The notes: a model not told the origin generated them from the letters alone. A DNA stretch of 64,000 nt from an uncultured Oscillospiraceae bacterium (GCA_900553255.1 USCI01000001.1:12371-76370); one strand, 5' to 3'; counted from the first letter of the stretch, positions 5,899-60,172 are shown. Program-made: numbers and translations.

Positions 5899-5913
5899 GA
5901 AAGGAGGGGGCAT

Positions 5914-42779: not shown

Positions 42780-44129
42780 ATGACTATTGCATTTCCAAAG
42801 TTTATCTCCTCAGATGAGGATTTAAATGTCACCTATGACTACCGCCGTTCAATATATCAACAGCATATCAAAAAAACGCCCACCGGTCATGTTATCACGG
42901 AATTTCTTCCGGACGTCCCTTGGGCAGGCGTTTATAATACCATCAGCTGTGCGGCAATGCATCATTTTCGCGAAGGACGCTGGATGCAAAATCCTTCTGT
43001 GCTGACAGAATATGCACAGTTTTGGTGCACGGAAGGCAACCCGCGCCTGTACAGCTTTCCTATTGCCGACAGCATCCTCGCACTGTGTCGGGTGACGGGT
43101 GATTATTCCACCGCCGATGCGCTTTACTCAAAGCTTTGTGAAATTCACAGCGCATGGGATGACCACAAAACCGCTGACGGTATGTATCGTCAGTCCTGTG
43201 ACCGCGACGGTATGGAATATTCCATTTCCGGTGACGGTCTGCGTCCGACGATCAACTCTTATATGTACGCAGACAAGTGTGCATTGTCGTATCTTGCGCG
43301 CCGTGCGAATGACAACACCGCCGCACAGTCCTATGCTGATGATGCTTTTCATTTGCTCGAGCAAATCAATGTGTGTCTGTGGAATGATGAAACCAATATG
43401 TATGGTGTTGTTTCTGATAACGGTATGATGCAGAACGTTCGCGAGCTGATCGGCTATATTCCGTGGATTTATGGAATTCCGACCGCAAAGCGGGACTCCT
43501 GCTTTGATAATCTGCTCGATCCATCCTGTTTCGCCTCGCCCTTCGGTCTGCGTACCGCAGACGCTTCCCATCACGATTATCGGAAACCCTACCCGCATGA
43601 ATGCCTCTGGAACGGTCCGATTTGGCCATTTGCCTCTTCTCAGACATTGACGGCAGTCATCGAATATCTACACACAGCAGAGGCACCTGTCCTGTCACCC
43701 AAGGATTTTACAGAGCTTATTCTGACCTATGCAAGATCCCACCGCGATACGGACGGCACACCTTATTTGGATGAAAATATGGACCCCGACACAGGCATCT
43801 GGCTCGCACGAGAGATTATGCGCGGATGGAATCGACCCGGTAAGGATCCCACGCGCGGGCGACACTATAATCATTCCACATTTATCGATCTGGTGATGAC
43901 CGGCATCTGCGGCATCCGTCCGTGTGACAGTGATCGTTTGATTCTGCACCCGCTCGGCACTTCACTTGATTGGTTCTCCGCAGAAGATATTCACTATCAC
44001 GGACATGTCCTCTCATTCAGGTGGGACAAAATCGATGGTCTGCGTGTGGATGTGGACGGAACACGGTCGTTTTTTGCTCAAGCAGCTGCGGATGTTCGTT
44101 TGGAGATCCATCTTGCCGACATTGAATGA
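42780..44129 (+). CDS. (alpha/alpha)6-barrel glycoside hydrolase, GH63/MGH1-like
   Basis: RBS AAAGGAG before ATG 42780. 'PFGLRTADASH', 'ECLWNGPIWPFASSQ' and 'HYNHSTFIDLVMTGICGIRP' resemble GH63/trehalase-type six-hairpin enzymes. Confidence 0.65.
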   Translation: MTIAFPKFISSDEDLNVTYDYRRSIYQQHIKKTPTGHVITEFLPDVPWAGVYNTISCAAMHHFREGRWMQNPSVLTEYAQFWCTEGNPRLYSFPIADSILALCRVTGDYSTADALYSKLCEIHSAWDDHKTADGMYRQSCDRDGMEYSISGDGLRPTINSYMYADKCALSYLARRANDNTAAQSYADDAFHLLEQINVCLWNDETNMYGVVSDNGMMQNVRELIGYIPWIYGIPTAKRDSCFDNLLDPSCFASPFGLRTADASHHDYRKPYPHECLWNGPIWPFASSQTLTAVIEYLHTAEAPVLSPKDFTELILTYARSHRDTDGTPYLDENMDPDTGIWLAREIMRGWNRPGKDPTRGRHYNHSTFIDLVMTGICGIRPCDSDRLILHPLGTSLDWFSAEDIHYHGHVLSFRWDKIDGLRVDVDGTRSFFAQAAADVRLEIHLADIE

Positions 44130-44655: not shown

Positions 44656-46932
44656 CTAGCGGTATCGCTCGCGGTAATCCCCCATGGTCACGCCCTGGAT
44701 TTGCTTGAACTTGCGCAGAAAGGTGGGCACATCCCCATACCCCACCGCCAGCACAATGTCCTTGATCGGCAGGTCGGAATCCCGCAGCAGCTCCGTTACC
44801 CGCGCCATGCGCAGCGCCGCAACATATTGTGCGAACCCGACACCGGTTTTTTTCTTGACCATCCGGCTGATGTAATACACCGAAAGCCCGAAGATTTCGG
44901 AAAGCTGCGCCAGGCTCAGCTGCGGATCGGTAAAATGCGCATCAATGTAGGCAACCATACGGTCCGCATCCGAAAGCAGCGCCGACCGGTTGCGCTCGCA
45001 CAGCGACAAAAGCAGCTGCCGCAGCTGTTCCCGGTTTTCCTCCGGCGAACTGACCCCCAGCATCGCCTTGAAGCGGGCCAGCGATGCGTAGTCTATCGGG
45101 GTGTCCTTCTCCTGTACGGCATTGAGGATTTCGGTACAGATATATTTGGCCAGAATCACCGAGCTGTTCCCCCGCGTTATGGTTTCCCACAGATCGTCAA
45201 ACTGCCGTGCCGCCTCCTGCGCGTCGCCCTGCCGCACACATTGCGCAAGCAGGGAATAATCCGCCGGCGTGCCGGAAAAGGGCTGATTCTGCAGGCTGGA
45301 CAGGTGCTCAAAAAAGACCAGGCCGTCCTGCATGCCGTCGGCCAGGTCGGCCGCCGTAAACGCCTCATAATACATCCGGCGGATCTCCGCCGCCGTACCC
45401 TGCCGGCCAGCGCCGGCGCTGCGGATAAACCGCATGGCGGCGTCGGTGCGCTGGGCGTATTCACGCAGCGCGCGGGAAACGGTACTGGCAAGCCATGCAC
45501 AGCCGTCCGGCGTTCCGTTTGCAAGCAGAACAAAACCATCTTCAAAAACCGGTTCAAATATCCACCAGCCGGCAGCTCCGTTTTCCGCCGAACGCGCCAG
45601 CGCGTCCGCAATAAAGGAAAAATCCACCCTGGCCTGCGCCGCCTTATTCTCCTTAAAAACAAGGAGGATAAAGGCCTCTTCCGGGAAACTGACGCCGCAG
45701 GCTTCCGCTTCCCGGAAAATCTCATCCGTATTCCCAAAGTCACCGGCAATCAACCGGCTGAAATACTGCTGCCGCACAATCCCGGCCTGCGCATTCAGCT
45801 GGCTTTTCAGCCGTTCACTGCTTTCGAGTATCGGCTCAATGGTATCCAGCGAACGCTCCAGCAAAGCCAGATCATCCCGGCCGCCGCCTTCCACATGCGC
45901 GATATCGGCTGCCTTCCGGATGAGCCGCGCAATCGGCCGGTAGTTCCTCCGCGTGAACAGCGCTACCGCGCCGAAAGCCACCAGCAAAACCACGATGACC
46001 GCCAGCGTCGCTACCAGCAGCACCGGCAGCGAGGCGGCAAAGTAGGCCCTGCGCGGGATGGTTACCGCCAGGACGGTCGGCGCCTGCCCGGAATTGCAGG
46101 CAATGACCGTGAAATCGTCCTGCGTTATGCCGGTCGGTGCATAGGCCGCCGTGTCCAGCACCGTCTGTGCGGAGGCACCCGCCTCCGCTCCGCCGGACAG
46201 CAGCCGGTCGCCCGCAGCGGTGAGCAGCTGCCATCCGGCATATTCGCCTCCCACCCCTTCAAGCATGGCCGTTATTGCTCGGCTGCTGATGCAGAACGCC
46301 AGACTTCCCTTGCCCTCATAGCTCAGATCGACGGCATACACCAGCATCAGAATATCCGTACGGCTGATCGAGGATGTCTGCAGCTCACAGGAAGGGATAA
46401 AAAGACGGCTGATCCGATGCCGGTTCTCGACAGACAGCCGGAAAACGTCCTGCAGCCCCTGTGCGCCGGTATACAGGGAGGCCGTTTCCGGCGCCAAATG
46501 TGCGGTAAAAAAGCCCGGCGGGTACTGATAAAACTGCCCGAAAAAGGTTTCCCGGTCAACCGTACCGCGGGAAGTATACACCAGCGGGGCATCCACCGGA
46601 TAAAACAGGACCTCCTCTAGGATCGCATATTCCCCGCGGATGCTGCGGATGCGCTCGGAAATCTCCGAATGCGATCCGCTTTCCACCGCTTCCCGGAAGT
46701 TCTGGGCGGTTACCAGGGAGGAAACCGCATAATCAAAATACGAAAACCAGCCGTCCATATATGCACTCACCCGCTGCAGCTCGGCCGCGGTGTCCTCATT
46801 AAACCGCCTGCGGGTGTCCTGATAATACAGCGTATAAAAAAGCAGGCCGACCAGCGACAGCGCGGCCGCAACCACCAGCGACTGCGTGAGAATAAAACGG
46901 AACAGGGTATGCATCGCTGGTTTTTCTTTCAT
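44656..46932 (-). CDS. membrane-anchored one-component AraC-family regulator (TM, ~270-aa extracytoplasmic domain, TM, cytoplasmic linker, AraC HTH)
   Basis: Hydrophobic 'LTQSLVVAAALSLVGLLFYTLYY' and 'LPVLLVATLAVIVVLLVAFGAVALF'. C-terminal 'LSLAQLSEIFGLSVYYISRMVKKKTGVGFAQYV..GYGDVPTFLRKFKQIQGVTMGDYR'. ATG 46932 preferred. Confidence 0.8.
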   Translation of the reverse strand: MKEKPAMHTLFRFILTQSLVVAAALSLVGLLFYTLYYQDTRRRFNEDTAAELQRVSAYMDGWFSYFDYAVSSLVTAQNFREAVESGSHSEISERIRSIRGEYAILEEVLFYPVDAPLVYTSRGTVDRETFFGQFYQYPPGFFTAHLAPETASLYTGAQGLQDVFRLSVENRHRISRLFIPSCELQTSSISRTDILMLVYAVDLSYEGKGSLAFCISSRAITAMLEGVGGEYAGWQLLTAAGDRLLSGGAEAGASAQTVLDTAAYAPTGITQDDFTVIACNSGQAPTVLAVTIPRRAYFAASLPVLLVATLAVIVVLLVAFGAVALFTRRNYRPIARLIRKAADIAHVEGGGRDDLALLERSLDTIEPILESSERLKSQLNAQAGIVRQQYFSRLIAGDFGNTDEIFREAEACGVSFPEEAFILLVFKENKAAQARVDFSFIADALARSAENGAAGWWIFEPVFEDGFVLLANGTPDGCAWLASTVSRALREYAQRTDAAMRFIRSAGAGRQGTAAEIRRMYYEAFTAADLADGMQDGLVFFEHLSSLQNQPFSGTPADYSLLAQCVRQGDAQEAARQFDDLWETITRGNSSVILAKYICTEILNAVQEKDTPIDYASLARFKAMLGVSSPEENREQLRQLLLSLCERNRSALLSDADRMVAYIDAHFTDPQLSLAQLSEIFGLSVYYISRMVKKKTGVGFAQYVAALRMARVTELLRDSDLPIKDIVLAVGYGDVPTFLRKFKQIQGVTMGDYRERYR

Positions 46933-47059
46933 GCAAACGCCATCCTTTTCGCAGCAGGCCCCTAACCGGAATGTATACGGATTAATTATCGCACAGAGCT
47001 GCCCCGTCCCGCAATGGCCAATTTTTGGATATCGGTAGAGTCTGTTTGGCTTTTTGATT

Positions 47060-47100
47060 TTGTGGACAAATTTGTGCAAATAATCGCCATTGTGGGCAAA
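47060..47100. repeat. three direct repeats TTGTG(G)(A/G)CAAA in the divergent promoter region
   Basis: TTGTGGACAAA (47060-47070), TTGTGCAAA (47072-47080) and TTGTGGGCAAA (47090-47100). Weaker TTGT..AAA copies follow at about 47137-47160. Confidence 0.5.
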
Positions 47101-47234
47101 AAAAACATATTTCAATCAACCCCCGTTTTTGATATGGTTGTTTTGTAAATACGGATTGTTGCCATACCGTTCTGTTTATGATCCGTTTCAAAGGGGTATC
47201 AAATCCCGGCGCCATGAAAAAAGGAGGTCGATTC

Positions 47235-49124
47235 ATGTATTCCCTGCAGGAACTCGGCAAAGCCTATACCCCCATACACGTCGTCGGAAACGGTCGGGTA
47301 TGCGCTTACGGCAACGGCGTGGCTGTCGAGCAGCTGTTTGGCCCGCATTACAGCGCGGCGGTGTTCTGCTCCCTTCTGCCGGCGGGGGAAGCGGCGCAGG
47401 CCGAAACCCGGCGGCTGCCGCAGACCGCCGTTTATGAACACCGGCTGTATGACGCGCACGGGCGGCAGGCGGCGACGATACGCGACTTTGCCGCCGCGGA
47501 GCATACCGCCTTCGTGCGATTGATTGACGGCAGCGTACCCACCGGATGGACGGCACAAACCCGAGCCCCGACCGGCTGGAAGCCGCTTACCCCCGTCCAT
47601 CTGACGGGAGCGCGGGCTTTTTGGGGCGAAATTCCGGAGGGTGCTTCCTTTTACGACTACGCGACCGAACCGGGGCGGGTACGCAGCTACATAACCCCTA
47701 CTCCTTCGCTGATGTGTCTGCTGGTGACCGGTGAAGCGGATATCCAAAACGACGGCGCACTCCTGCATCTGCGCATCGGCAGCGGCATGCTGGCGGCCGT
47801 GTTCGCGGCCGATTTCGGCGGGCTGATGGCGGAATGCCGCCGGGTGCTGGATACCGGCGCCCCGGCACTGCTGGAGGCAGCGCTCGCGGATGGCAGGCGG
47901 TTCTCCGCCCGGCGGTCGGCAAACCGGCCGCTTGCCGATCCCAGGCTTGAGGCGGTGGCCGACGATGTTGCGATGCTCATCCGCTGCCAGCAGTCGGCCT
48001 CCGGCGGCATCATGGCCGGACCGCGCTATCATCTGAGCTATGTGCGGGACAACTACGGCACCCACCGGGGGCTGCTGAGCCTGGGCTGTTTTGACGAGGC
48101 GCGCCGGCTTTTGGGGTTCTATGCCGACACCTTCGCACGCTACGGTGCCGTACACACCGCTCAGGCCACCGATTGCTATGGCTTTCATATCCACGAGCAG
48201 GACGCCGTGGAAATCACTGCATACCTGATGCTCATGGCGGCCGAATACCGGCAGAAAACCGGCGACACCGATACCTTTGCGGCTCTGCTGCCCCTGATCC
48301 GGTGGGCCGCTGCGCAGCAGCATGCACTTCTGAAAAACGGCATGCTCCCGTTCAACGGGGACGAAACCTACATTGCCTGCGGATTGCTGCCCCGCACCGT
48401 CATCAACAACGGTTCCATGGAGGCCACTGCGCTGTATCACCGGGCATGTGACCGCCTGCTGGCCATGGGAGAGGACGCCGGCCTTACAGCGGCACAGCGC
48501 AGCATGCTTGCGGCGGACCGGGAAGACATCGAACGGCTTTTTGCCGATAATTTTGTCTGCAGCGGCACCCTCACTGCCAACTGTCCCCGCTATTACGCCC
48601 CGGGCGAAGCGCCGGCATACCGGCACGGCGTTTACCAGTGCGGTCACGGCATGGGCGGCAATGCCTGCCGCAATCCGGACGGGATCTATGTCTGCCCCGA
48701 CTGCGCCGGCAAATCCATCCCCGGGCTGCAGGAAAACACCGAGCGCCGCTTCACCGTCCCATCGGCCGTGCTGATGCCGGCGGTCGCCGGCTCGCCGCTG
48801 ATGAGCCGCCCTTATGCGGTAAAAACGGTGCAGACAATGCTGGACCATTTCCGTGCCGGCGGCACCTTAGACGGCAGCAGGCGGATGATCGGCTACGAAT
48901 ACGGCGAGCTGCTGTTCGCCCTGCAGGCTGCCGGCTGCGGTACGCCTGCGGATATTGCCGCCATCGGCCGGCAGATGCTGGCGGTGCGGGACGCGGCCGG
49001 CGCCTGGGTGGAGTGCTATGACAACGGGCAGCCGGTGGGCTGCATGTGCCGTCCGTGGGAAAGCGGCATCAACGCCGCCGCACTGCTGGACATCGCCGGA
49101 ACGGCAGCATTTCCGGCGGAATAA
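47235..49124 (+). CDS. (alpha/alpha)6-barrel glycoside hydrolase-like protein (GH15-like), cytoplasmic
   Basis: RBS AAGGAGG 7 nt before ATG 47235. 'GPRYHLSYVRDNYG' resembles the GH15 'Y..W.RD' motif. Helix-rich composition and no signal peptide. Confidence 0.6.
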   Translation: MYSLQELGKAYTPIHVVGNGRVCAYGNGVAVEQLFGPHYSAAVFCSLLPAGEAAQAETRRLPQTAVYEHRLYDAHGRQAATIRDFAAAEHTAFVRLIDGSVPTGWTAQTRAPTGWKPLTPVHLTGARAFWGEIPEGASFYDYATEPGRVRSYITPTPSLMCLLVTGEADIQNDGALLHLRIGSGMLAAVFAADFGGLMAECRRVLDTGAPALLEAALADGRRFSARRSANRPLADPRLEAVADDVAMLIRCQQSASGGIMAGPRYHLSYVRDNYGTHRGLLSLGCFDEARRLLGFYADTFARYGAVHTAQATDCYGFHIHEQDAVEITAYLMLMAAEYRQKTGDTDTFAALLPLIRWAAAQQHALLKNGMLPFNGDETYIACGLLPRTVINNGSMEATALYHRACDRLLAMGEDAGLTAAQRSMLAADREDIERLFADNFVCSGTLTANCPRYYAPGEAPAYRHGVYQCGHGMGGNACRNPDGIYVCPDCAGKSIPGLQENTERRFTVPSAVLMPAVAGSPLMSRPYAVKTVQTMLDHFRAGGTLDGSRRMIGYEYGELLFALQAAGCGTPADIAAIGRQMLAVRDAAGAWVECYDNGQPVGCMCRPWESGINAAALLDIAGTAAFPAE

Positions 49125-49143: not shown

Positions 49144-49413
49144 GAGATAAGCAGGCTCGAACCCGGCCCGCCTTCTCTGGGCAGGACGTCGGCCGTCTGC
49201 GTTTTCGTCCTTGATGGGCGCCAGCCCATCTTCGTTCTCAGCCTTGCCGGACAACGTCCTGCTCCCCAGAGAAGGTCGAAGAATTTCGGAGAGCGGAAGA
49301 AAGGCGGGACAAGGCGCCTGACCGAGGCATGCTGCCGCATGCTAAGGAAAGGCAACGACGGCCGGCTTTTCTTCCGCCGCCGAAATCGTGTCGTGTTCGT
49401 GCCTGCTTATCTT
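49144..49413 (+). other. ~270-nt non-coding element with nested long-range helices (candidate structured RNA or MITE-like element)
   Basis: AGATAAGCAGGC (49145-49156) pairs with GCCTGCTTATCT (49401-49412). CCTTCTCTGGGCAGGACGT (49171-49189) pairs with ACGTCCTGCTCCCCAGAGAAGG (49254-49275). GCGGAAGAAA (49293-49302) pairs with TTTCTTCCGC (49368-49377). Inner hairpins at 49213-49230 and 49328-49343. Confidence 0.55.
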
Positions 49414-49449: not shown

Positions 49450-50631
49450 ATGGCAAACGATTCTTGGCAGCAGGAGCAATTCGTACTATCCACTTTTCAC
49501 GCAGTGCCTGCCGACGCAGGCGACGAGCTGCCGGCCATTCTCAACGCCTGCAAGGAGGCCGGACTGACCCATGTCGAAACCGCCTTTTCAGCACGGCCTG
49601 CCATCCTGCGGGCACTGGACATCTGCGACGAAATCGGCCTGAAGGTGATCGTGCAGGATCTCGGCTCACTCAGCGGGTTCCAGGATCGCACCACTTCCGC
49701 CGCCACCCCCGAGACGGTGGCCGAGGCGGTAAAAACCTACGGCGCCCACCGGTCGGTGGACGGCTACTACATCTGGGACGAACCGTTTTTCGAGCAGCTG
49801 GACTTTGCCGCCGAAAACACCCGGCTGATCCGGCAGTATGCGCCCGGCAAGCTGCAGCTGATCGCACTGCTGCAGTCCTACAGCCCGGATTATCACTGGG
49901 AAAACGGTCTGTTCCCCCGGTATATTGATACCTTCATCGAGCGTACCGACCCATCCCTTTTATCCTTTGACTATTATGTCTTTGACCATGACGTGGACAA
50001 AGGGGTTTCCCTTGAGGATTCCTACTTGTGGACCGATATGGCGTACATCCGCAAAAAAGCGCTGGAAAACGGCATTCCGTACTGGTACTACCTGCAGCTC
50101 ATCGGCGATATTATCGGGCATCAGCCCGACCGCATTACTCTCGAGCGGGTGCGGGTACAGACCGGCATAGCGCTGGCCTTCGGAGCCTCGGGCATCCAGT
50201 ATTTCAACATCCTCGACGGCATCCTGACCAAACAGGGGGAACGCATGAAGCTGTTCGACCCGGTGGCCGCCCTCAACCGCGAGGTGCTTTCGCTCGGGGA
50301 GGCGCTGTTCGGCAAAAAATCCACCCTCGTTTACCCCTCCGGCAGACTGCTGCACCGCGAATATCTGGACAGCCCGGCCGATTCCCCGCTGGTCGCCGGG
50401 GCGCCGGACGGCCTGTTCATCGGCGAATTTACCGACGAGGCAAGCGATTATCTGCTGGCGGTCAGCCTCGATTACGAACAGCCGCGCACGGGAGAAATCC
50501 GGCTGCGGCAGACACGGCAGGCTGCAGCATTCGACCCGGGCAGCAAAACCTACGGTGCCCCGGAACGCACCGCCGCCCTGGCGTACAATCTGCCGGCCGG
50601 CGGCTATCGTCTGTACCGGTTTGCAAAATAA
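49450..50631 (+). CDS. uncharacterised TIM-barrel-like protein (GH42/clan GH-A-like by eye), cytoplasmic paralog 1 of 3
   Basis: No signal peptide. Blocks shared with the next two genes: 'FVLSTFHAVP', 'GLTHVETAF', 'IGLKVIVQD', 'GYYIWDEPFFEQ', 'LLQSYSPDY', 'LSFDYYVFDHDVDKG', 'IPYWYYLQLIGD', 'GIQYFN'. Confidence 0.8.
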   Translation: MANDSWQQEQFVLSTFHAVPADAGDELPAILNACKEAGLTHVETAFSARPAILRALDICDEIGLKVIVQDLGSLSGFQDRTTSAATPETVAEAVKTYGAHRSVDGYYIWDEPFFEQLDFAAENTRLIRQYAPGKLQLIALLQSYSPDYHWENGLFPRYIDTFIERTDPSLLSFDYYVFDHDVDKGVSLEDSYLWTDMAYIRKKALENGIPYWYYLQLIGDIIGHQPDRITLERVRVQTGIALAFGASGIQYFNILDGILTKQGERMKLFDPVAALNREVLSLGEALFGKKSTLVYPSGRLLHREYLDSPADSPLVAGAPDGLFIGEFTDEASDYLLAVSLDYEQPRTGEIRLRQTRQAAAFDPGSKTYGAPERTAALAYNLPAGGYRLYRFAK

Positions 50632-50643
50632 GGAGGAGAGGCA

Positions 50644-52134
50644 ATGCACGGCAAAAAACGTCTGGCCGGCGCAGCGGCGCTGGCAATCGGCGCGGCCTGT
50701 CTGCTCAGCCCGGCCGCACTCGCCGAGGAGACCCCCAGATACCAGCAGGAGGAATTTGTTATTTCCACCTTCCACGGCGTACCCTCGATGCCTAACGGTT
50801 TTTACAACGAGGTGATGTTCGCCCTCAAGGAGGTGGGGATGACCCATTTGGAGACCGCCTTCACCTCTCCGGAGGGAAGTGAGATGGCTCTTCAGATCGC
50901 AGAGGAGCTGGGCCTGAAGGTCATTGTGCAGGATACCAACCTTTACGGCGGTTTCCAGAACCAGACCATCCCTCCCACCACCGAGGAGGACATCCTCAAA
51001 GTGATCGAGAAATACGCCCAGTACGAGTCCTTCGGCGGTTACTACGTCTGGGATGAGCCGTTTCTTGAACAGCTCGACGACGTAAAAAAGAACATGGACT
51101 GGATACAGAAGCATGATCCCGGCAAGCTGCGGCTGGTGGCACTGCTGCAGTCCTACAGCCCCACCTACTGGTGGCCCAACGGCACCTTCAAGGAATACAT
51201 TGACACCTATGTCGACAAGATTGATCCCGACCATCTGTCCTTCGACTATTACGTGTTCGATGCCGATGTGGATAACGGTACCCCGCTTAAGGATTCCTAC
51301 ATGTGGATGGACATGGCGTATATCCGCAAAAAAGCCCTTGAGCGCGATATCCCGTACTGGTATTACCTGCAGATCCTCGACGATGTGGCGAATCCCAACA
51401 TCAATCCCCAGCCCATGACCCGCGGGCGCATCAGTTTCCAGGTATACACCGCCATGGCGTACGGTGCAACCGGCATCCAGTATTTCAACACCATGGACAG
51501 CATTGTGGACGATTACGGGCGGCGTCTGGACAAATTCGACATCCTCAAGTCCATTAACAGTGAAATCCATAACCTCGGCCCGACCCTGATGGAGCTGACC
51601 TCCACCGTGATTTACCCCACCATTGATCTCGCACGCCACGAATATATCGGCTCCCTGGAGGAGGATGCCACGCTGGTCGCTTCCGCACCGGGGGACATGT
51701 TCTTCGGCGAGTTCAAGGATGACGACGGCAACGACTACCTGCTGCCGGTCAACTGCGATTACGACAACCCGAAAGCCGGCACCATCACCCTTAAAGGGCG
51801 CTGGGATGTCTACGAGCTGGACGCGGCCACCGGCGAAACCAAGCTGAAGGCAGCGGACACCGACACGATCGAGATCGATTATGTTGAGGGCGGCGGCGCA
51901 CTGTACGCACTGCGGCCGGTTGGCGCGGACTTCCCGGTTCTGCCCGGGACCGGGGAGCCGGCAGCACCGGATAATCCGTCGTCGGACGGCCCGTCCTCCG
52001 ACACGGCATCCAACGGGGAAACAGACAACGGGCTGATGACCGTACTGCTGATCGTCGGCGGCATCGTGGCAGCCGGCCTGGTGATCATCGGGGTGATCAT
52101 GGTGGTGAAGCTGCGGCGCCCGGTTAAGAAATGA
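50644..52134 (+). CDS. same family, paralog 2: signal peptide and C-terminal Pro/Ser/Asp linker + TM anchor
   Basis: RBS AAGGAGGAG. 'AALAEE' signal cleavage-like site. The same conserved blocks. C-terminus 'LPGTGEPAAPDNPSSDG..LMTVLLIVGGIVAAGLVIIGVIMVVKLRR'. Confidence 0.85.
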   Translation: MHGKKRLAGAAALAIGAACLLSPAALAEETPRYQQEEFVISTFHGVPSMPNGFYNEVMFALKEVGMTHLETAFTSPEGSEMALQIAEELGLKVIVQDTNLYGGFQNQTIPPTTEEDILKVIEKYAQYESFGGYYVWDEPFLEQLDDVKKNMDWIQKHDPGKLRLVALLQSYSPTYWWPNGTFKEYIDTYVDKIDPDHLSFDYYVFDADVDNGTPLKDSYMWMDMAYIRKKALERDIPYWYYLQILDDVANPNINPQPMTRGRISFQVYTAMAYGATGIQYFNTMDSIVDDYGRRLDKFDILKSINSEIHNLGPTLMELTSTVIYPTIDLARHEYIGSLEEDATLVASAPGDMFFGEFKDDDGNDYLLPVNCDYDNPKAGTITLKGRWDVYELDAATGETKLKAADTDTIEIDYVEGGGALYALRPVGADFPVLPGTGEPAAPDNPSSDGPSSDTASNGETDNGLMTVLLIVGGIVAAGLVIIGVIMVVKLRRPVKK

Positions 52135-52144
52135 GGTCGTGTTC

Positions 52145-53683
52145 ATGAAAAAAGCAATCAAACGCCCTCTGGCGCTGGCGGCTGCGCTGTGTATCTCCGG
52201 TTCCGCCTGCGCGGCATCGCCGGCCGAAGCGCTGCCCGCACCGGCAGGCGAAACGCTTGTCCAGACCGATTTCGTCATCTCCACCTTTCATTGTGTTCCC
52301 GGCGGCCTCACCCCGGAATACCCTCAGCTTCTCACCCTGGCCAAGGAGGCGGGGCTGACCCACGTGGAAACCACCTTCACCGCGCCTTCCGCCAGCCAGA
52401 CAGTGCTGGACATCGCGGAACAGATCGGGTTAAAGGTGATCGTACAGGACTACACCCGCTTCGGCGGGTTCCAGAACTGGCCCGACCGCATCGCCGCCAC
52501 CACCGAGGACAGCGCAAAAGAAGCGGTGGAAATGTTCGATTCCCCGGCCCTGGCCGGCTATTACATCTGGGATGAACCGTTTCTTGAGCAGTTTGAACAG
52601 GTACGTCAGGACATCGGTATCATGGACCGGTTGGATCCCGGAAAAATCCAGCTGGTAACCATGCTGCAGAGCTACAGCCCCGACTACACCTGGGACAACG
52701 GCATGTACAAAACATACCTTGACCGCTATATGGCCGAGGTGCGGCCTCCGCTGCTGGTATTCGACTACTACGTCTTCGACCATGATGTGGATAAGGGGGT
52801 CGGCCTGTACGACTCCGCAATGTGGAAGGATATGGGCTATATCCGCCTGAAGGCTAAGGAGGCGGATATCCCCTACTGGTTCTATATCCAGCTCATCGGG
52901 GACATTCCCAACAACACGCCCGGCACCATGACCGTCCCCCGCGTCGCGGTGCAGGATTATATTTCGCTGGCGTTCGGGGTGTCCGGTATCTCCTACTACA
53001 ACGCCATCGAGGGCATTTTTGACGACAAGGGCAACAAAAACCATCTGTATGACGGGGTGGCTGCCCTCAACCGGGATATTCTGACGCTCGGCCGGGCGCT
53101 GCTCGGCGCGGAATCCACCCTGGTCTACCATACCTCCCCACTGCAGCATGACGATTATCTTGACCAGTTGGGGGACTCCGAAACGGTGGAAGCGGCGCCG
53201 GCCGACCTGTTTATCGGCGAGTTCAACGCCCCGGACGGCGGGCAGTATCTGCTGCCGGTAAATACCGATTATGAAAAGGAACGCAGCGGAAGCATCCGGC
53301 TGAAAGCGTCAAAAACCGTGTACCGCATCGACAAAGCCACCGGACAGCCGGTGCTCGTTGCCGAAAGCACCGATGCCATCGACTACCAGATGGCGGCAGG
53401 CGAAGGCGAGCTGTACTGGCTGACCGATCTGCCCTCCGATCCGCCGCCGGTTGTCCCGACCGGTGACCAACCCGCCGCAAGCGAACCGGATTCCCCGGCT
53501 GAAACCGGCGGATCCGAAAGCGGCATCCCATCAACCGGTACGGAACCAGGCGCCTCTCCCCCCATTGGGCTGATTGCCGCACTGGTGCTTGGCGGCGCCG
53601 TCCTGCTCGGCGGTGCCGGGATCGTCTGTGCGTATCTTTACCGACGGAAAACCATGAACAAAAGAAAGGAGCCACCGCAATGA
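52145..53683 (+). CDS. same family, paralog 3: signal peptide and C-terminal linker + TM anchor
   Basis: ATG 52145 after GAGG. The same conserved blocks. C-terminus 'IPSTGTEPGASPPIGLIAALVLGGAVLLGGAGIVCAYLYRRK'. Confidence 0.85.
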   Translation: MKKAIKRPLALAAALCISGSACAASPAEALPAPAGETLVQTDFVISTFHCVPGGLTPEYPQLLTLAKEAGLTHVETTFTAPSASQTVLDIAEQIGLKVIVQDYTRFGGFQNWPDRIAATTEDSAKEAVEMFDSPALAGYYIWDEPFLEQFEQVRQDIGIMDRLDPGKIQLVTMLQSYSPDYTWDNGMYKTYLDRYMAEVRPPLLVFDYYVFDHDVDKGVGLYDSAMWKDMGYIRLKAKEADIPYWFYIQLIGDIPNNTPGTMTVPRVAVQDYISLAFGVSGISYYNAIEGIFDDKGNKNHLYDGVAALNRDILTLGRALLGAESTLVYHTSPLQHDDYLDQLGDSETVEAAPADLFIGEFNAPDGGQYLLPVNTDYEKERSGSIRLKASKTVYRIDKATGQPVLVAESTDAIDYQMAAGEGELYWLTDLPSDPPPVVPTGDQPAASEPDSPAETGGSESGIPSTGTEPGASPPIGLIAALVLGGAVLLGGAGIVCAYLYRRKTMNKRKEPPQ

Positions 53684-55287
53684 AAACCATGAAAGCACGT
53701 CTTCTCGCCCTGGCCGCCTGCGCGGCGATGACCATCGGCCTGGCTGCCGGCTGCAGCCCCTCGGACCCCGCCGGCTCCGGCGGTGCCGTGGACACCGAAA
53801 ATCCCGACCTGGCCGCCTTCCCTGTTTCGGAGGAAACCATCAATCTCAAGGTGGTGCTCAAGACCAACCCGGTCAACGGCGACATCGAGAGCATGTGGTT
53901 CTGGGAAGAAATGGAAAGGCTGAGCAATATCCATTTCGAGGTGCAGGCGATCGACATGGCTACCTTCCACGACCGCAAGGCACTGATGATCATGTCCGAA
54001 CAGCTGCCGGATATGTTTCTGGGCTATGCCGAATTTGATTCCGGCGAGGTGCTCAAATACGGCAACGAGGGCGTGTTTATCGACCTGCAGGATTATGTGG
54101 CCGATATGCCGAACCTGCAGAAGGTACTGGCTACCGGCGGAAACAACACCCTGAAAACGGTGACCGCGCCGAGCGGGCAGATTTATTCGCTGCCCTGCTT
54201 CAACACCCGCGGCAATCCCGACACCGGCACCCGCGCCTTTATCAATACCCAGTGGCTGGAAAATCTGGGACTGGAGATGCCCACCACCCTGTCCGAGCTG
54301 CACGACGTACTGGTCGCTTTCCGCGACCGCGACCCGGACGGTGACGGCGTCAACAACACCATCCCCTTCTCCGCAGTGGGCTGGAACTTCGTCGAGCTGT
54401 TCAAGCATGCCTACGGCTATGTTTCCGACTTTGATGTCAAGGACGGCAAGATTTCCTATTTCCCGCTGACGCCGGAATATGTGGACTACTATGATACCCT
54501 CAACCGCTTCTACACCGAAAACCTGATCGACCACGAATTCTACACCCAGTCGGACGATCAGTTCAAGGCCAAGGCGCAGGCAATGAAGGTTGGTATGTTC
54601 GTCTATTCCTCGATCGATATCGCGGTGGGCGATGACGAGGAGAAATGGTCCCAGTATGAGGCGTTCATGCCGGTCAAGGCGGACGAGAATACCGAAGCCA
54701 CCTGGAGCCTGCTCGACGGTGTCTATCCCCACGCCGCAATCCTTACCAAGGCCAACCAGCATGTGGAGGAATCGCTCAAATTCCTGGATTTCCTGTACAC
54801 CGACACCGGCACCACCATGCTGCGCAACGGCCCGGAAAAAGGCAAATGGTCGGGTGAAGGCGGCTGGTACTACAACGAAAACGGCGAAGTGGAAATTGAA
54901 CCGTCGCCGGAGTTCACCAACTCCTGGGAATACATCAACGCTGTGACGCCCGCCATCAACATCCTGCCCTGCTGGATGCCGTCTGCCACGATGGAAAAGG
55001 GCAAGGGTACCCCGAAGGACGATTATCTCACCGAGCAGCTGGCACGGTATGAGGACGTGGGCCGCTATATCCTGCCGGAGGTCATGTACACCGAAGAAGA
55101 GGCCGCCCGCATCAACGAAATCTGGCCGTATCTGGAGGCATATGTCGGCGGCCAGGTAGGCAACCTGATTATCGGTGTCAAGGCGGTGGAGGAAATCCCC
55201 GCCATGCAGGAGCAGATGCGCAAAATCGGTGCGGAGGAGCTTCTTCAGATCCGGCAGGCGGCCTACGACCGCTACCTGAACAGCTGA
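53680..55287 (+). CDS. extracellular solute-binding lipoprotein (LplA-type, family 1)
   Basis: ATGA overlap with the previous gene. Lipobox 'LAAGCS'. About 510-aa SBP body typical of LplA-like oligosaccharide binders. Confidence 0.85.
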   Translation: MKTMKARLLALAACAAMTIGLAAGCSPSDPAGSGGAVDTENPDLAAFPVSEETINLKVVLKTNPVNGDIESMWFWEEMERLSNIHFEVQAIDMATFHDRKALMIMSEQLPDMFLGYAEFDSGEVLKYGNEGVFIDLQDYVADMPNLQKVLATGGNNTLKTVTAPSGQIYSLPCFNTRGNPDTGTRAFINTQWLENLGLEMPTTLSELHDVLVAFRDRDPDGDGVNNTIPFSAVGWNFVELFKHAYGYVSDFDVKDGKISYFPLTPEYVDYYDTLNRFYTENLIDHEFYTQSDDQFKAKAQAMKVGMFVYSSIDIAVGDDEEKWSQYEAFMPVKADENTEATWSLLDGVYPHAAILTKANQHVEESLKFLDFLYTDTGTTMLRNGPEKGKWSGEGGWYYNENGEVEIEPSPEFTNSWEYINAVTPAINILPCWMPSATMEKGKGTPKDDYLTEQLARYEDVGRYILPEVMYTEEEAARINEIWPYLEAYVGGQVGNLIIGVKAVEEIPAMQEQMRKIGAEELLQIRQAAYDRYLNS

Positions 55288-55355: not shown

Positions 55356-55392
55356 GGAGCTGCTGCAAAAGGAAACCTTTTGCAGCAGCTCC
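55356..55392 (+). other. perfect 17-bp intercistronic stem-loop between the two SBP genes
   Basis: GGAGCTGCTGCAAAAGG-aaa-CCTTTTGCAGCAGCTCC with no U-tract after it. Confidence 0.7.
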
Positions 55393-55418
55393 GTCGGCAC
55401 GAGAGGATGATCTACATA

Positions 55419-58340
55419 ATGAGAGCACCGAGGAACAGGCTAAGAAAAGCCATTGCCCTGCTGGCAGCGGCGCTGACGGCTGTTTCACTGTCCGCCGGGT
55501 ATACTGCGCTCGCCGGTGCCGGCGGCAAGCCGCTCCGGGAAGAGTTTATTTCCGGGGATGAGGGGGAGTCGGTCGATTTCGTCAACCAGCTTGAGCAGCC
55601 GTACTACCGCACCGTGCGGGAGGAGTACACCGCTAAGGGCTATACCCCCGCTGAAGCGGAGGATATCGTACTGCCGCCTTCGCACCTTTCGGAAACGCTC
55701 ACGGAACAGCTGGGAGAAACCGCCTTTCACTGGACCGGGGAGGACGAAGAGGTCAGCTGGACCTTCACCATCGAGCAGGCGGGGCTGTATGAAATCCGCC
55801 TCGACTACCTCGTGGCAGAGGGCGGGGTCAATCCCGCGCGGCGTTCGATCACTGTTGATGGTGAGACCCCCTTCTTTGAATGCAGCGGCTTGTATTTCTA
55901 CCGGCTGTGGGAGGATGACGGCGAGCCGATTGTCAACAGCCTCGGCGACGAAATCAAACCGCGTCAAAAGGAGGTCCGCCGCTGGCAGTCGGTTTCTCTG
56001 GAGGACGGGCACGGGTTTTACGCTGAACCGTTCGCCTTCTACTTCACCCCCGGCGAGCACACCCTGACGATGGCCTACGTCGAGGAGGATATGTATATCG
56101 GGGATTTGACCGTCACGCCTCAGCGGGTAATTCCCCCGTACAGCGAAGTGGCGGCAGAATACGAGGCAAAGGGCTACCAGCCCGCGGCTGCCGCGGACGG
56201 CGGAATATTCCAGGCAGAGCTGACCGCCGTGGAAAAGTCCGATCAGACCCTGCGCCGGGAGAGCGACACCGATCCGGCCACGCAGCCGTCCAGTCCGTCC
56301 GAACGCCGGCTCAACATGATGGGCGGAGTCGGCTGGGCCAAGGGCAATCAAACCATCACATGGTCCTTTGAGGTGAAGCAGGACGGGTTGTATACCCTGT
56401 CGCTGCGGTATGGGCAGATCTGGCTCAACGGCCTGCCCTCCTACCGCCGCATCGCCATCGACGGTGAGGTGCCGTTCGCCGAGCTGCTCGATTACCGTTT
56501 CGATTACGGCTCCGGCTGGCAGGCCGAAACCCTCAGCGACAGTGAAGGGAATCCTTTTCAGTTTTACCTCACCGCCGGGAAGCACACCCTGTCGATGACC
56601 GTAAAATTCGGAGAGATCACCGAAGTGGTGCAATCGCTCAATGAGGACTCCATCCGGATGTCCAACATCATGCTGGATCTGCTGCGCATCACCGGCAATG
56701 ATCCGGATCCGAATTACGATTACGAATTTTTCACCGCGATCCCGGGCCTCGAGGATACGCTGCGGCAACTGTCCGCGAGCCTGGACGAAAAATACCAGCA
56801 GCTTGTGGATATCTGCGGCGGGGACGTGCCCGGCTTTGCCAACTCCCTGAAGGCCACCCGCATCCAGATCGACGAGCTGATCGAGGATCCTTTCCTCATC
56901 GCCCGGCGCATGGACGATCTGACCACCATTCAGTCGAATCTGGGCAGCTGGTATATGGAGTTCCAGACCCAGCCGATTATGATCGACTATTTTGAGGTCG
57001 GCAGCGCCGACACCCCCTTTGTCATGCGCAAATCCAACATACTGGAAAAGATCCAATACATGATGATCAGCCTGGCGGTATCCTTCGTTAAGGATTACGA
57101 CTCGGTCGGCTCGGTAGCCGACAACAGCGCCGTGATTACCGACAACATCACCGTCTGGATTGCACGCGGCAACGAGTGGGCCAGCCTGATCAAGGAGCTG
57201 GCCGACCAGCAGTTCACCCCCGCCACCGGCATCAACGTCAACATCAACATCATGCCGGCTTCCCAGCTCAATGCCGGTGCGGTCAACGCGCTGATGCTGT
57301 CGATCACCTCCGGCAAAGCGCCGGACGCAGCGATGGGCGTGGATCCCGGCTCCCCGGTGGAATTCGCCATCCGCGATGCCGTGGTGGATCTGTCGTCCCT
57401 GCCGGGGTTTGACGAAACGGTCGCTCCCCGGTTCATCGAACAATGCCTGGTGCCGTTTACCTACCGCGGTGGGATTTACGCGCTGCCCGAAACGATGGAT
57501 TTCCGGGTGCTGATCTACCGCAAGGATATTGTTGCCAAGCTGGGACTGACCCTGCCGGATACCCGGCAGGATCTGTACGACACCGTGCTGCCGGCGCTGT
57601 ATCAAAACGGCATGAATTTTTACTACCCCCGTGACGATTCCCAGTTTGTCTACCAGCACGGTGCCGCTTTCTACACGGAGGACGGCCTGCGTTCCGGGCT
57701 GGACACCCCCGAGGCATACCAGGCCTTCAAGGAATCCACCGAGCTGTACACCAACTACGGCATCCCGGTGACCGCCAACTTCTACAACCGCTTCCGCAGC
57801 GGCGAGATGCCGATGGGCATCGGCTCATTCACCGATTATATCCAGATCAGCGTGGCCGCCCCGGAGCTGTCCGGCAAATGGGGAATCGCTCCGCTGCCCG
57901 GCATTGAGCGGGAAGACGGCAGCGTGGACCGCTCGGTCGGCAGCATCACCGGCCAGTGCAGCCTGATCATGAGCCAGACCGACAAGGTCGATGCGGCATG
58001 GCAGTTCCTGCAGTGGTGGACCGAGGCACAGACCCAGACCGATTTCGGCCGGGAGATCGAGGCGCTGCTGGGCAGCTCCGCCCGCTGGAATTCGGCAAAT
58101 GTGGAGGCGTTCTGCAACATGCCCTGGCCGCAGGAGGACCTCGCGGTCATTCAGGAGATGTGGCCGTTCTACCGGGAGGTACCGGTGGTGCTGGGCGGCT
58201 ATTTCACCGGCCGGCATCTCAACAACGCCTGGAACAATGTCGTCATCGGCGGCGAACCGCTGCGGGACAGCTTGGAAGAGGCGGTCAAGGAAATCAACCG
58301 CGAGCTTTCGATGAAGCAGCGCGAATACGGCGTGACCTGA
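55419..58340 (+). CDS. large extracellular protein: two tandem CBM-like beta-sandwich repeats fused to an ABC solute-binding domain
   Basis: Signal/anchor 'AIALLAAALTAVSL'. Internal repeat 'VSWTFTIEQAGLYEIRLDY..RRSITVDGETPF..FTPGEHTLTM' versus 'ITWSFEVKQDGLYTLSLRY..YRRIAIDGEVPF..LTAGKHTLSM'. The C-terminal ~430 aa are SBP-like. Confidence 0.75.
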   Translation: MRAPRNRLRKAIALLAAALTAVSLSAGYTALAGAGGKPLREEFISGDEGESVDFVNQLEQPYYRTVREEYTAKGYTPAEAEDIVLPPSHLSETLTEQLGETAFHWTGEDEEVSWTFTIEQAGLYEIRLDYLVAEGGVNPARRSITVDGETPFFECSGLYFYRLWEDDGEPIVNSLGDEIKPRQKEVRRWQSVSLEDGHGFYAEPFAFYFTPGEHTLTMAYVEEDMYIGDLTVTPQRVIPPYSEVAAEYEAKGYQPAAAADGGIFQAELTAVEKSDQTLRRESDTDPATQPSSPSERRLNMMGGVGWAKGNQTITWSFEVKQDGLYTLSLRYGQIWLNGLPSYRRIAIDGEVPFAELLDYRFDYGSGWQAETLSDSEGNPFQFYLTAGKHTLSMTVKFGEITEVVQSLNEDSIRMSNIMLDLLRITGNDPDPNYDYEFFTAIPGLEDTLRQLSASLDEKYQQLVDICGGDVPGFANSLKATRIQIDELIEDPFLIARRMDDLTTIQSNLGSWYMEFQTQPIMIDYFEVGSADTPFVMRKSNILEKIQYMMISLAVSFVKDYDSVGSVADNSAVITDNITVWIARGNEWASLIKELADQQFTPATGINVNINIMPASQLNAGAVNALMLSITSGKAPDAAMGVDPGSPVEFAIRDAVVDLSSLPGFDETVAPRFIEQCLVPFTYRGGIYALPETMDFRVLIYRKDIVAKLGLTLPDTRQDLYDTVLPALYQNGMNFYYPRDDSQFVYQHGAAFYTEDGLRSGLDTPEAYQAFKESTELYTNYGIPVTANFYNRFRSGEMPMGIGSFTDYIQISVAAPELSGKWGIAPLPGIEREDGSVDRSVGSITGQCSLIMSQTDKVDAAWQFLQWWTEAQTQTDFGREIEALLGSSARWNSANVEAFCNMPWPQEDLAVIQEMWPFYREVPVVLGGYFTGRHLNNAWNNVVIGGEPLRDSLEEAVKEINRELSMKQREYGVT

Positions 58341-58353: not shown

Positions 58354-59250
58354 GTGAAGGCAATCACCAAAAAACGCTTTATGCGTGAATATCGCTACGG
58401 CTATATCTTTTTGGCGCCGTTTCTGATCCTCTTTTTTGTGTTTATGGTCATACCGATATTCGTCGCCTTTTTTCTGAGCTTCACCAACTATAACATGCTC
58501 CAGTCGCCGGTATTCACCGGCATTGAGAACTATAAGATGCTGCTGCTCGACGACAAGGTGTTTCTCACCGCGCTCAAAAACACCCTGATCTTTGCGCTGA
58601 TTACCGGGCCGGTGGGGTATTTCTGCTCCTTTATCTTCGCCTGGGTAATCAACGAGCTGCGCTTCCGCACCGTGTTCGCGCTGGCGTTTTATGCGCCCTC
58701 GATCACCAACGGCATCGCCATGTCGGTCATCTGGCTGTATTTCTTCTCCGGAGACCGCTACGGCATGATCAACAACGTCCTGATTAACATCGGTATCATC
58801 AGCGAACCAATCCAGTGGACCATGGACGCCAACTACATTCTCGGTGTGGTTATCTTCATCTCGATATGGATGAGCATGGGCACCGGCTTCCTGGTTTTCC
58901 TGGCCGGATTCCAGAATATCAACAAGGAATACTACGAGGCCGGAGCCATCGACGGCATCCGCAACAAGACCCAGGAGCTCCGCCTGCTGACCCTGCCCAT
59001 GATGAAGCCGCAGCTGCTATTCGGCGCGATCAACGCGCTGGTCAACTCATTCGGGGTGTTCGACGTCGCGGTGTCGGTAGCCGGCATGCCAAGCCCCAAC
59101 TATGCTGCGCACACCATTGTGGCGCATCTGTACGATTACGCATTCATCCGCTTCCAGATGGGATATGCCTCGGCGGTTGCCATGGTGTTGTTCCTGATCA
59201 CCTTTGTGATCGGCCGCGGATTCATGAAGCTGCTGAGCAGCGACGACTGA
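58354..59250 (+). CDS. sugar ABC transporter permease (LplB/MalF-like)
   Basis: AGGAGG 7 nt before GTG 58354. EAA loop 'YYEAGAIDGIRNKTQELRLLTLPMMKP'. Confidence 0.9.
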   Translation: MKAITKKRFMREYRYGYIFLAPFLILFFVFMVIPIFVAFFLSFTNYNMLQSPVFTGIENYKMLLLDDKVFLTALKNTLIFALITGPVGYFCSFIFAWVINELRFRTVFALAFYAPSITNGIAMSVIWLYFFSGDRYGMINNVLINIGIISEPIQWTMDANYILGVVIFISIWMSMGTGFLVFLAGFQNINKEYYEAGAIDGIRNKTQELRLLTLPMMKPQLLFGAINALVNSFGVFDVAVSVAGMPSPNYAAHTIVAHLYDYAFIRFQMGYASAVAMVLFLITFVIGRGFMKLLSSDD

Positions 59251-59254: not shown

Positions 59255-60172
59255 GTGGTACGGTTGGCTGAGCTTCAACGGGCAAAACGGATACGCACAC
59301 ATGCGCCGCTTCGCCGGCGCGTACATAAGATCCGTGCCCCCTGGGTAATCGTCTACATCCTGATGATCCTGCTGGTCTGCTTCACGGCACTGCCTCTGGT
59401 ATACATGGTAAACACCGCATTCAAGCCCATGCAGGAATTATTTGTATTCCCGCCCAACTTTTTTGTACGCAATCCCACCACCAAGAACTTTGTCGACCTG
59501 GTGGTGGTTATGGGCAGCTCGACGGTGCCGTTTATCCGCAACGTGGTCAACAGCATCATTGTTTCGGTTTCCATCGTATTTCTGACGGTGATGGTGTCCA
59601 CCACCGGCGCCTACGGCCTGGTCAAATTCCATATTCCCGGCCGCAAGCTGATTTTCAATATCGTGGTGGCCTCCCTGATGTTCTCCCCTCATGTGACCCA
59701 GATCCCCCGTTACCTGGTGGTCAACGGCCTGGGCATGATCAACCACTATTCGGCGCTGATCCTGCCGGCGGTGGCGAGCAGCTACAACTTTTTCCTGATG
59801 AAGCAGTTTGTCGAGCAGTTCCCGAACGAGCTGCTCGAAGCGGGACGCATCGACGGCTGCGGGGAATACCGCATGTTTTTCAAGCTGGTAATGCCGGCCC
59901 TCCGTCCAGCATGGTGCACGCTGGTCGTTTTCTCCTTTGTATCCAGCTGGAACGACTATTTCACCCCGCTGATCTACGTGACCAGTCAGGCAATGAAGAC
60001 GCTGCCGCTGGCGCTGCAGACCATCGCGGGCGGTGCCGCGGCACAGAGCATTTCACGCGCCGGGGCAGTAGCGGCCGCCACACTTCTGATGACCCTGCCT
60101 ACCATCGTCATTTTCACCGCCATGCAGAAAAACGTAATGGAAACGATGACCTACTCCGGCATAAAGGGGTGA
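59255..60172 (+). CDS. carbohydrate ABC transporter permease (LplC/MalG-like)
   Basis: EAA loop 'LLEAGRIDGCGEYRMFFKLVMPALRPAW'. Paralog of the gene at 2..586. The start may be TTG 59264, which has better RBS spacing. Confidence 0.9.
   Translation: MVRLAELQRAKRIRTHAPLRRRVHKIRAPWVIVYILMILLVCFTALPLVYMVNTAFKPMQELFVFPPNFFVRNPTTKNFVDLVVVMGSSTVPFIRNVVNSIIVSVSIVFLTVMVSTTGAYGLVKFHIPGRKLIFNIVVASLMFSPHVTQIPRYLVVNGLGMINHYSALILPAVASSYNFFLMKQFVEQFPNELLEAGRIDGCGEYRMFFKLVMPALRPAWCTLVVFSFVSSWNDYFTPLIYVTSQAMKTLPLALQTIAGGAAAQSISRAGAVAAATLLMTLPTIVIFTAMQKNVMETMTYSGIKG

Follow-up and report, generated by a model that had tools for sequence, protein, structure and literature searches.

Glycoside hydrolases (GHs) of clan GH-A carry an Asn-Glu pair on strand 4 of their barrel, in which the Asn contacts the 2-OH of the sugar in subsite -1 and the Glu is the acid/base, and a second Glu on strand 7 is the nucleophile. 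The beta-N-acetylhexosaminidases of families GH20, GH84, and GH123 employ neighbouring-group catalysis, and substrate-assisted retaining catalysis without an enzyme nucleophile is established for GH20. In the GH20 beta-hexosaminidases (clan GH-K), as in the family described here, strand 4 of the barrel ends with an Asp-Glu pair, and the background to their substrate-assisted catalysis is referenced in PMC11087588 (refs 17–19). Substrate-assisted retaining enzymes, such as those of GH20 and GH123, are marked by an Asp-Glu pair on strand 4 of a TIM barrel together with the lack of an enzymic nucleophile (for GH123-like enzymes, PMC11087588). We analysed a 64,000-nucleotide stretch of DNA (the window) from an uncultured Oscillospiraceae bacterium (GCA_900553255.1, USCI01000001.1:12371-76370), in which three consecutive genes, A, B, and C, occupy positions 49450–53683. 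Profile comparisons show that the family of their products has a distant but significant relationship to GH42 and the other glycosidases of clan GH-A. The alignments further show that it keeps the strand-4 Glu111 together with an invariant Asp110, and has no acidic residue at the position of the GH42 nucleophile.

The structure of paralog A, predicted by AlphaFold2 from the family alignment, has a mean predicted local distance difference test score (pLDDT) of 93 and a predicted template modelling score of 0.92. It can be divided into a (beta/alpha)8 barrel, formed by residues ~10–287, and a C-terminal beta-sandwich of about 100 residues (290–392). Strands 4, 6, 7, and 8 of the barrel are formed by residues 103–110, 171–174, 211–216, and 248–252, respectively. 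The best matches of the family profile in the PDB are the GH42 enzymes 5XB7 (E 3e-6), 3TTS (2e-5), and 6LVW (4e-3), followed by GH5 cellulases. The correspondences to GH42 landmarks that an earlier note on this DNA had drawn by eye were each reproduced by the alignments of the profile to PDB entries. The segment 'AGfnlvel' aligned with 'AGINVIRI' of 5XB7, 'GYyvwDEP' with 'GYDIMNEP' at the acid/base position of the GH5 enzyme 4LX4, 'sfDyYpf' with 'SWDNYPS' of 3TTS, and 'YGakglsyF' with 'HGADAVLYF' of 6LVW. The segment 'pfwfyiq' aligned with both 'PFWVMEQ' of 6LVW and 'PFMLMEQ' of 3TTS, and the GH42 nucleophile Glu falls on family residue 215. In the chain numbering of 6LVW this Glu is E312, which presumably corresponds to the published nucleophile E312 of the Thermus A4 enzyme.

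The GH42 enzymes (PF02449; 3TTS, 5XB7, 6LVW, and 1KWG) provide the statistically best-supported matches to the family, with E values of 3e-6 to 2e-4. They have in common with it the (beta/alpha)8 barrel, the motifs 'xEP' on strand 4, 'DxYP' on strand 6, 'PFW' on strand 7, and 'GAxxxxYF' on strand 8, as well as helix 8. However, GH42 enzymes are three-domain proteins of about 650–700 aa, whereas the family core comprises about 390 aa with a single C-terminal beta-sandwich, and the Asn-Glu pair on strand 4 of GH42 is replaced by Asp-Glu. PF02449 does not match A, B, or C at E≤1, and gives weak matches in six of 73 distant relatives, the best at 1.6e-8. The GH42M trimerisation and GH42C domains have no match in the three proteins.

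The search of the PDB with the predicted structure using Foldseek did not discriminate between families. The matches are generic proteins with a TIM barrel and a sandwich (PslG/GH39, GH13, 4NZJ, and GH42) with template modelling (TM) scores of about 0.55–0.6. The top match, the PslG-type GH39 enzyme (5BX9/4ZN2; E 2.6e-12, TM score 0.56), has the layout of a barrel followed by a C-terminal beta-sandwich in common with the family model, but the sequence identity is only 14–16%, and the root-mean-square deviation is 7–8 Å. GH39 enzymes possess the canonical Glu/Glu pair of clan GH-A. PslG is an exopolysaccharide hydrolase, and some distant family members are encoded in exopolysaccharide biosynthesis clusters. 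When the sequence of paralog A alone was used as the query, the PDB gave no match.

The conservation of active-site positions was determined from an alignment of 73 diverse relatives, each 20–49% identical to paralog A. Residue 215 is Leu or Ile in the three paralogs (Leu215 in paralog A). Among the relatives it is Ile in 23 sequences, Phe in 22, Tyr in 11, Val in seven, Leu in four, Thr in three, and Ala in two, and in none of the 73 is it Asp or Glu. No conserved acidic residue is present on strand 7 or after it (residues 211–220) in the 73 members. The absence of a Glu at the nucleophile position, which the earlier note had read from A, B, and C, is thereby extended to the relatives, in which the position is hydrophobic or aromatic. 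Its conclusion that the proteins either are not classical retaining hydrolases or use a different mechanism stands. The Glu of the DEP motif is conserved: Glu111, which is located directly after strand 4 at the acid/base position, is present in 72 of the 73 relatives, and Asp110, in the place of the clan GH-A Asn, is present in all of them. The family has the fold and the strand-4 acid/base position of clan GH-A, and its strand-7 carboxylate nucleophile is missing. Other conserved positions are Pro112 (62/73), Tyr144 (68/73), Asp174 at the end of strand 6 (71/73), Tyr176 (71/73), Trp212 (61/73), Gln237 (66/73), Tyr244 (67/73), Gly245 (72/73), and Asn276 (68/73).

The profile of residues 60–182 has its best PDB match in 8K2H (E 0.011), which is the GH123-like beta-N-acetylhexosaminidase NgaAt. 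The sequence 'AYFYLWDEPLNMEHFDNVRKMASEIYAYAPD' of 8K2H aligned with 'GYYIWDEPF.EQ...DP' of the family, and the segment 'AYFYLWDEPLN' pairs with 'GYYIWDEPF'. The aligned Asp-Glu of NgaAt is D401/E402, because the published fragment of 399 residues ends with '...AYFYL'. Mutants and thiazoline complexes of NgaAt support D401 as the residue stabilising the 2-acetamido substituent and E402 as the acid/base (Sumida et al. 2024, PMC11087588). Two independent GH123-like profiles, one for the plant enzymes of group 2 and one for the bacterial enzymes of group 3, were compared to the family using hhalign. The Asp-Glu of the family was placed on the Asp-Glu of the GH123-like enzymes in all four comparisons, with E values of 5e-6, 2.7e-4, 0.011, and 2.4e-4 and probabilities of 86, 41, 4, and 44%, respectively; reversed and column-shuffled controls had E≥0.055 and probabilities of at most 1%. 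The strand-7 'WxY' and strand-8 'Gxxx W' motifs of the GH123-like enzymes lie within one residue of W212-x-Y214 and G248...F/Y252 of the family.

These alignments, above the controls but not decisive, argue for a weak link between the family and the GH123-like enzymes, which we read as a shared active-site layout, possibly with remote homology, and not as membership in the same family. The TIM barrel, the consecutive Asp-Glu in '(Y/L)WDEP', and the helix-strand element after WDEP are common to the GH123 and GH123-like enzymes (PF13320/PF22680; NgaAt) and to the family, and neither has an enzymic nucleophile. However, the N-terminal beta-sandwich and the DUF4091 'pillar' of the GH123-like enzymes are not present in the family, the sandwich of which is C-terminal and the barrel of which starts at about residue 10 without a preceding domain. 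In its C-terminal half, the barrel resembles GH42 more closely than GH123-like enzymes. Neither PF13320 nor PF22680 matches A, B, or C at E≤1, and GH20 was not matched by the family in sequence or fold searches. The GH123-like enzymes are put forward as a mechanistic analogue of the family.

By analogy with the enzymes described above, we propose, with a probability of about 0.45, that catalysis in the family relies on a neighbouring group of the substrate, most likely 2-acetamido; Asp110 would be the polariser and Glu111 the acid/base. It is because the residue preceding the acid/base is an invariant Asp, and not the Asn of clan GH-A, that neighbouring-group catalysis appears probable. The proteins would be retaining glycosidases that form no covalent enzyme intermediate: the group at C2 of the substrate, most likely 2-acetamido, would attack C1, Asp110 would orient and polarise this group, and Glu111 would serve as the acid/base. 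At the level of the locus, the surface-anchored paralogs B and C would cleave a glycan outside the cell, two binding proteins and ABC (ATP-binding cassette) permeases would import the fragments, the cytoplasmic paralog A would complete their breakdown, and an AraC-type membrane regulator would control the genes. Neither the fold nor the clan nor the proposed chemistry is without precedent. The apparent novelty is the family itself, which is very large, descends from GH42, has Asp-Glu and no nucleophile, and lies outside Pfam, NCBIfam, and the solved structures. If the proposal is correct, a replacement of classical double displacement by neighbouring-group catalysis would, to our knowledge, be documented for the first time in clan GH-A, and the family would show that the clan GH-A barrel can be re-wired to act without an enzymic nucleophile.

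Several observations weigh against the proposed neighbouring-group mechanism. The similarity to GH123-like enzymes is weak, with E values of 0.011–0.36 in hidden Markov model searches and hhalign probabilities of 4–86%, and the GH123-like comparisons differ from one another by one residue in the register of strands 7 and 8. NgaAt is the only one of the solved GH123-like structures that was matched, and there is no hexosaminidase among the top 50 Foldseek matches. The presumed position of Asp110 relative to the -1 sugar is taken by analogy from that of the clan GH-A Asn, and Asp174 at the end of strand 6, conserved in 71 of the 73 relatives, might conceivably act as the catalytic carboxylate instead. 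In the polysaccharide utilisation loci (PULs) of Bacteroidota, the partners of the closest homologs are GH78 or GH106 rhamnosidases, GH127, WbsX-like proteins, and GDSL and SASA esterases, and not GH20, GH18, or amino-sugar catabolism genes. This composition suggests a glycan rich in rhamnose, arabinose, or acetyl groups, with no obvious polymer of N-acetylhexosamine (HexNAc). The 116 immediate neighbours of family genes in 80 genomes belong to 106 Pfam families with no conserved partner, because of which the context in most Clostridia is uninformative.

Hints of a HexNAc-containing substrate exist, but they are thin. The barrel of one relative (P0134) is fused to a C-terminal Amidase_3 domain, an N-acetylmuramoyl-L-alanine amidase. 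CE4 deacetylases and clusters of exopolysaccharide glycosyltransferases adjoin distant members; beside one of these (P0027, locus L089) lie a VanZ gene and a cluster of exopolysaccharide glycosyltransferase and CE4 genes. The members in locus L010 have a weak DUF4838 (GH163/GH185-type) neighbour, and GH38, MGH1-like, and GH130-like genes are found near Clostridial loci. As a speculation, bacterial wall polysaccharides composed of rhamnose and GlcNAc would fit both sets of contexts. A chitin link, suggested by matches of PF08329 (ChitinaseA_N) in P0005/P0007, was rejected, as the match is faint and covers only a C-terminal Ig-like repeat. A wider formulation, in which an unclassified family derived from GH-A/GH42 either switched to neighbouring-group catalysis or uses an as yet undescribed mechanism on rhamnose-, arabinose-, or acetyl-rich glycans, is possible and is offered tentatively.

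The same PUL partners, rhamnosidases, GH127, and esterases in place of HexNAc enzymes, would suit glycosidases of the classical two-carboxylate type, either retaining or inverting, whose second catalytic residue was relocated to a different strand. Their substrates would be neutral sugars, for example rhamnosides, arabinofuranosides, or galactosides. Such a mechanism would employ the strand-6 Asp174 together with Glu111 or Asp110, or else Asp70 or Asp196, and these aspartates are present in 71 (Asp174), 56 (Asp70), and 48 (Asp196) of the 73 relatives. In clan GH-D (GH27, GH31, and GH36), the nucleophile is located on strand 4 and the acid/base on strand 6, and the spacing of 64 residues between Asp110 and Asp174 is presumably near that of the two catalytic residues in these families. 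The putative alpha-galactosidase 4NZJ and many GH13 proteins are among the top Foldseek matches, but these matches are generic for a TIM barrel with a sandwich (TM scores 0.55–0.6), and by sequence statistics the family is linked to GH42 and GH5 rather than to GH27, GH31, or GH13. Moreover, the alignment with 3TTS shows that GH42 carries the same Asp in its strand-6 'WDxYP' motif, where it is neither of the two catalytic residues, so that the conservation of Asp174 is most simply explained by inheritance. We consider a relocated second carboxylate rather unlikely.

A GH42-like barrel without a nucleophile could also belong to glycoside phosphorylases or transglycosylases, with phosphate or an acceptor sugar acting in place of the nucleophile. 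GH112 is a precedent for a phosphorylase in which phosphate takes the place of the enzymic nucleophile. The predicted cytoplasmic location of paralog A and of many relatives of about 447 aa, and the presence of GH35-type beta-1,2-glucosyltransferases (7VKW–7VKZ) among the weak PDB matches, are consistent with this function. It is nevertheless improbable: paralogs B and C have signal peptides and membrane anchors, and extracellular phosphorylases are not expected; many relatives have dockerin, SLH, or type IX secretion system (T9SS) domains or are encoded in SusC/D PULs; and no set of Arg and His residues for phosphate binding is evident among the near-invariant columns. The family-wide loss of the canonical nucleophile, and the pairing of the genes with those of solute-binding proteins, might alternatively indicate catalytically dead proteins of glycosidase descent that bind or scaffold glycans. 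However, Asp110 and Glu111 are invariant among proteins that are only 20–50% identical to paralog A, and Tyr144, Asp174, Tyr176, Trp212, Tyr244, and Asn276, located at predicted strand ends, are strongly conserved; the pattern is that of a maintained active site. A binding role also fits poorly with a cytoplasmic copy, and the loss of catalytic activity is very improbable.

The family is large and, as far as Pfam and NCBIfam show, holds as uncharacterised. An initial set of 27 clusters of homologs was collected by a word-indexed search, and the profile built from them was searched against 1.84 billion cluster representatives. It matched 7122 of these with E≤1e-3, and 1335 at the stricter cut-off of E≤1e-30. 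The description of the family as uncharacterised in the earlier note is borne out, as no Pfam or NCBIfam model matches A, B, or C at threshold, and the NCBIfam search with the three proteins gave no relevant match. The names of the homologs in their sources are all 'hypothetical protein', and literature searches on DUF4434, on WbsX, and on neighbouring-group catalysis in new GH families yielded no account of the A/B/C family. The only Pfam family touched by the proteins is DUF4434 (PF14488), which matches paralog A (18.8 bits, 1e-3) and paralog B (16.3 bits, 7e-3) below its gathering cut-off of 30 bits, over only about 80–110 residues that span strands 2–4; paralog C has no match to DUF4434. 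If confirmed, the proteins would constitute a new glycoside hydrolase family of about 7000 clusters at 50% identity, and a function could be given to 'hypothetical' genes in PULs. The PULs with rhamnosidases, GH127, and esterases would then point to a glycan the breakdown of which is poorly understood, and the family could provide new specific glycosidases as tools. Paralog A, as a compact soluble protein of 393 aa, should be easy to express.

Among GTDB representative genomes, the family is found mostly in gut Clostridia and in Sphingobacteriia/Chitinophagia. The Clostridial carriers are metagenome-assembled genomes of Oscillospiraceae, Ruminococcaceae, and Lachnospiraceae from ruminants, chicken, and human. 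Overall, the family is widespread in Clostridia of the herbivore gut and in PULs of soil Bacteroidota. The best match in the GTDB species representatives, from Parapedobacter, has an identity of only 45%. At least 15 of 80 loci, as well as a Chitinophaga PUL, contain arrays of two to four family genes. The barrels of relatives are fused to dockerin, to fn3 and SLH domains, to CBM11, to F5/8-C with a T9SS tail, or to VanZ (N-terminal in P0122 and P0131). These partners are accessory domains typical of extracellular carbohydrate-active enzymes. In one relative (P0141), an extracytoplasmic function sigma factor is fused to the N-terminus of the barrel.

The closest Bacteroidota homologs are encoded in small SusC/D PULs. 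The PUL of Chitinophaga contains two family genes and GH127. That of Sphingobacterium (L082) encodes a WbsX-like protein, a 436-aa protein without a Pfam match, and one family protein; the 436-aa protein is possibly the product of a second family gene. Another PUL (L084) combines a WbsX-like protein with GH106, a SASA esterase, and a GDSL esterase, and the PUL of Parapedobacter contains GH78, FG-GAP, and a GDSL esterase. The WbsX-like proteins (PF14307) are encoded at positions 7192–8427 of L082 and 1339–2541 of L084. No link of the WbsX-like domain to glycosidase activity was found in the literature.

In the window, the open reading frames of paralogs A (49450–50631, 393 aa), B (50644–52134, 496 aa), and C (52139–53683, 514 aa from a GTG start) are located on the + strand. 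Paralog C has 512 aa if the ATG at 52145, chosen in public gene calls, is used as the start. A Shine-Dalgarno sequence, GAGAGGGG, is positioned 8–15 nt 5' of the ATG of paralog A. The gaps between the genes are 12 nt (A–B) and 4–10 nt (B–C), and the stop of paralog C shares a 4-nt overlap with the start of the next gene at 53680. Pairwise identities of the three proteins amount to 46–49% in the shared core, where 113 columns, distributed over about 390 residues, are invariant; this level of sequence similarity is far above chance. The earlier note had described the array as a tandem triplication. The three adjacent paralogs are indeed present, but the copies are old and diverged: paralog C is 65% identical to P0005/P0007, which come from a separate AraC/ABC-transporter/GH3 locus, 59% identical to P0003, and 53% identical to P0006 from Sphingobacterium. 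A recent tandem duplication was rejected because C is closer to these outside homologs than to A or B. Of the three paralogs, C is the nearest to such orthologs (53–65% identity), at least one of which comes from another phylum. A protein identical to paralog B (P0004) is encoded on public contigs with the same operon.

The conserved core of paralog A begins with its first residues and is not preceded by a signal peptide, whereas paralogs B and C have signal-like hydrophobic N-termini (MHGKKRLAGAAALAIGAACLLSPAALA and MKKAIKRPLALAAALCISGSACAAS, respectively), in agreement with the distinction drawn in the earlier note. The C-termini of B and C consist of a Pro/Ser/Gly linker, one hydrophobic helix, and a basic tail. 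From these sequences it follows that paralog A is predicted to be cytoplasmic, and B and C to be surface-anchored. The linker of paralog B is rich in Pro and Ser and contains LPGTG 27 aa ahead of the C-terminal transmembrane helix, and paralog C has IPSTG eight residues ahead of its C-terminal helix. These motifs, within the regions 51990–52134 (B) and 53500–53683 (C), are candidate sortase-type sorting signals, and the C-termini of B and C could function as such signals instead of plain membrane anchors.

Genes A, B, and C head an operon with the genes of two solute-binding proteins and two ABC permeases, all on the + strand. The first solute-binding protein (53680–55287) belongs to SBP_bac_1 (Pfam E 2.7e-12). 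It is followed by a large solute-binding protein of about 980 aa (55380–58340; SBP_bac_1, 1.4e-22), of which about 560 aa form an N-terminal extension, in which there are only faint matches to Golvesin_C, PKD, and DUF5077-like domains. This protein is retained beside family arrays in loci L005 and L006, with 33% identity over 881 aa (tblastn), and may be a binding protein that captures glycans. The permeases (58354–59250 and 59255–60172) were assigned by Pfam (BPD_transp_1) and by synteny with L005 and L006. The last gene of the conserved block (60183–62303) encodes a membrane protein that was identified by Pfam as a combination of an SGL/NHL beta-propeller, TPR, and Yip1; it is also present in the syntenic loci L005, L006, and L010 and in L085/L086. 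The family array, the large binding protein, the permeases, and the propeller-Yip1 protein are arranged syntenically in two other Clostridia (L005 and L006), and the same operon is found on public NCBI, Logan, and ENA contigs, including L085 and L086.

Upstream of the array, an AraC-family regulator of 819 aa is encoded in a divergent orientation (44656–47115, - strand). It has an HTH_18 domain at its C-terminus (Pfam 1.7e-18) and an N-terminal membrane/sensor region, and is a candidate regulator of the A/B/C locus. The gene between them (47178–49124, + strand) encodes a protein of 648 aa, in which a GH15 match is below threshold (E 0.035), and for which neither Pfam above threshold nor the sequences of the PDB gave a match. 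A low-confidence single-sequence AlphaFold2 model of it (pLDDT 38) consists mainly of helices. A terminator-like hairpin is located 3' of this gene (49213–49230), and the gene is possibly on a separate transcript from A/B/C. The protein was set aside as a component of the system, as it has no counterpart in the syntenic loci examined.

Farther from the array, positions 40806–44129 are occupied by a small unit, in which the G+C content falls to 0.49–0.50 compared to about 0.60 elsewhere. It comprises an AraC regulator (40806–41741, - strand), a 308-aa protein with weak GH130/GH43-like matches (41800–42726), and an MGH1-like (GH63-type) hydrolase (42753–44129; E 5e-60). A second ABC glycan locus is located at the start of the window (602–8811). 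It encodes an SGL-propeller and Yip1 membrane protein (602–2710), which is of the same paralog type as the product of the 60183–62303 gene, a DUF5696 protein (2712–4991; E 8e-162), which is followed by an open reading frame of 301 aa, a permease (5914–6936), and a solute-binding protein fused to CBM11 (6970–8811). The propeller-Yip1 protein is thus paired with sugar ABC loci twice in the window. No tRNA or Rfam features were found in the 64 kb. A protein with choice-of-anchor I and lamin-tail domains is encoded at 15347–17953, and is followed by a stretch of low G+C content (0.48–0.54) from 18 to 22 kb.

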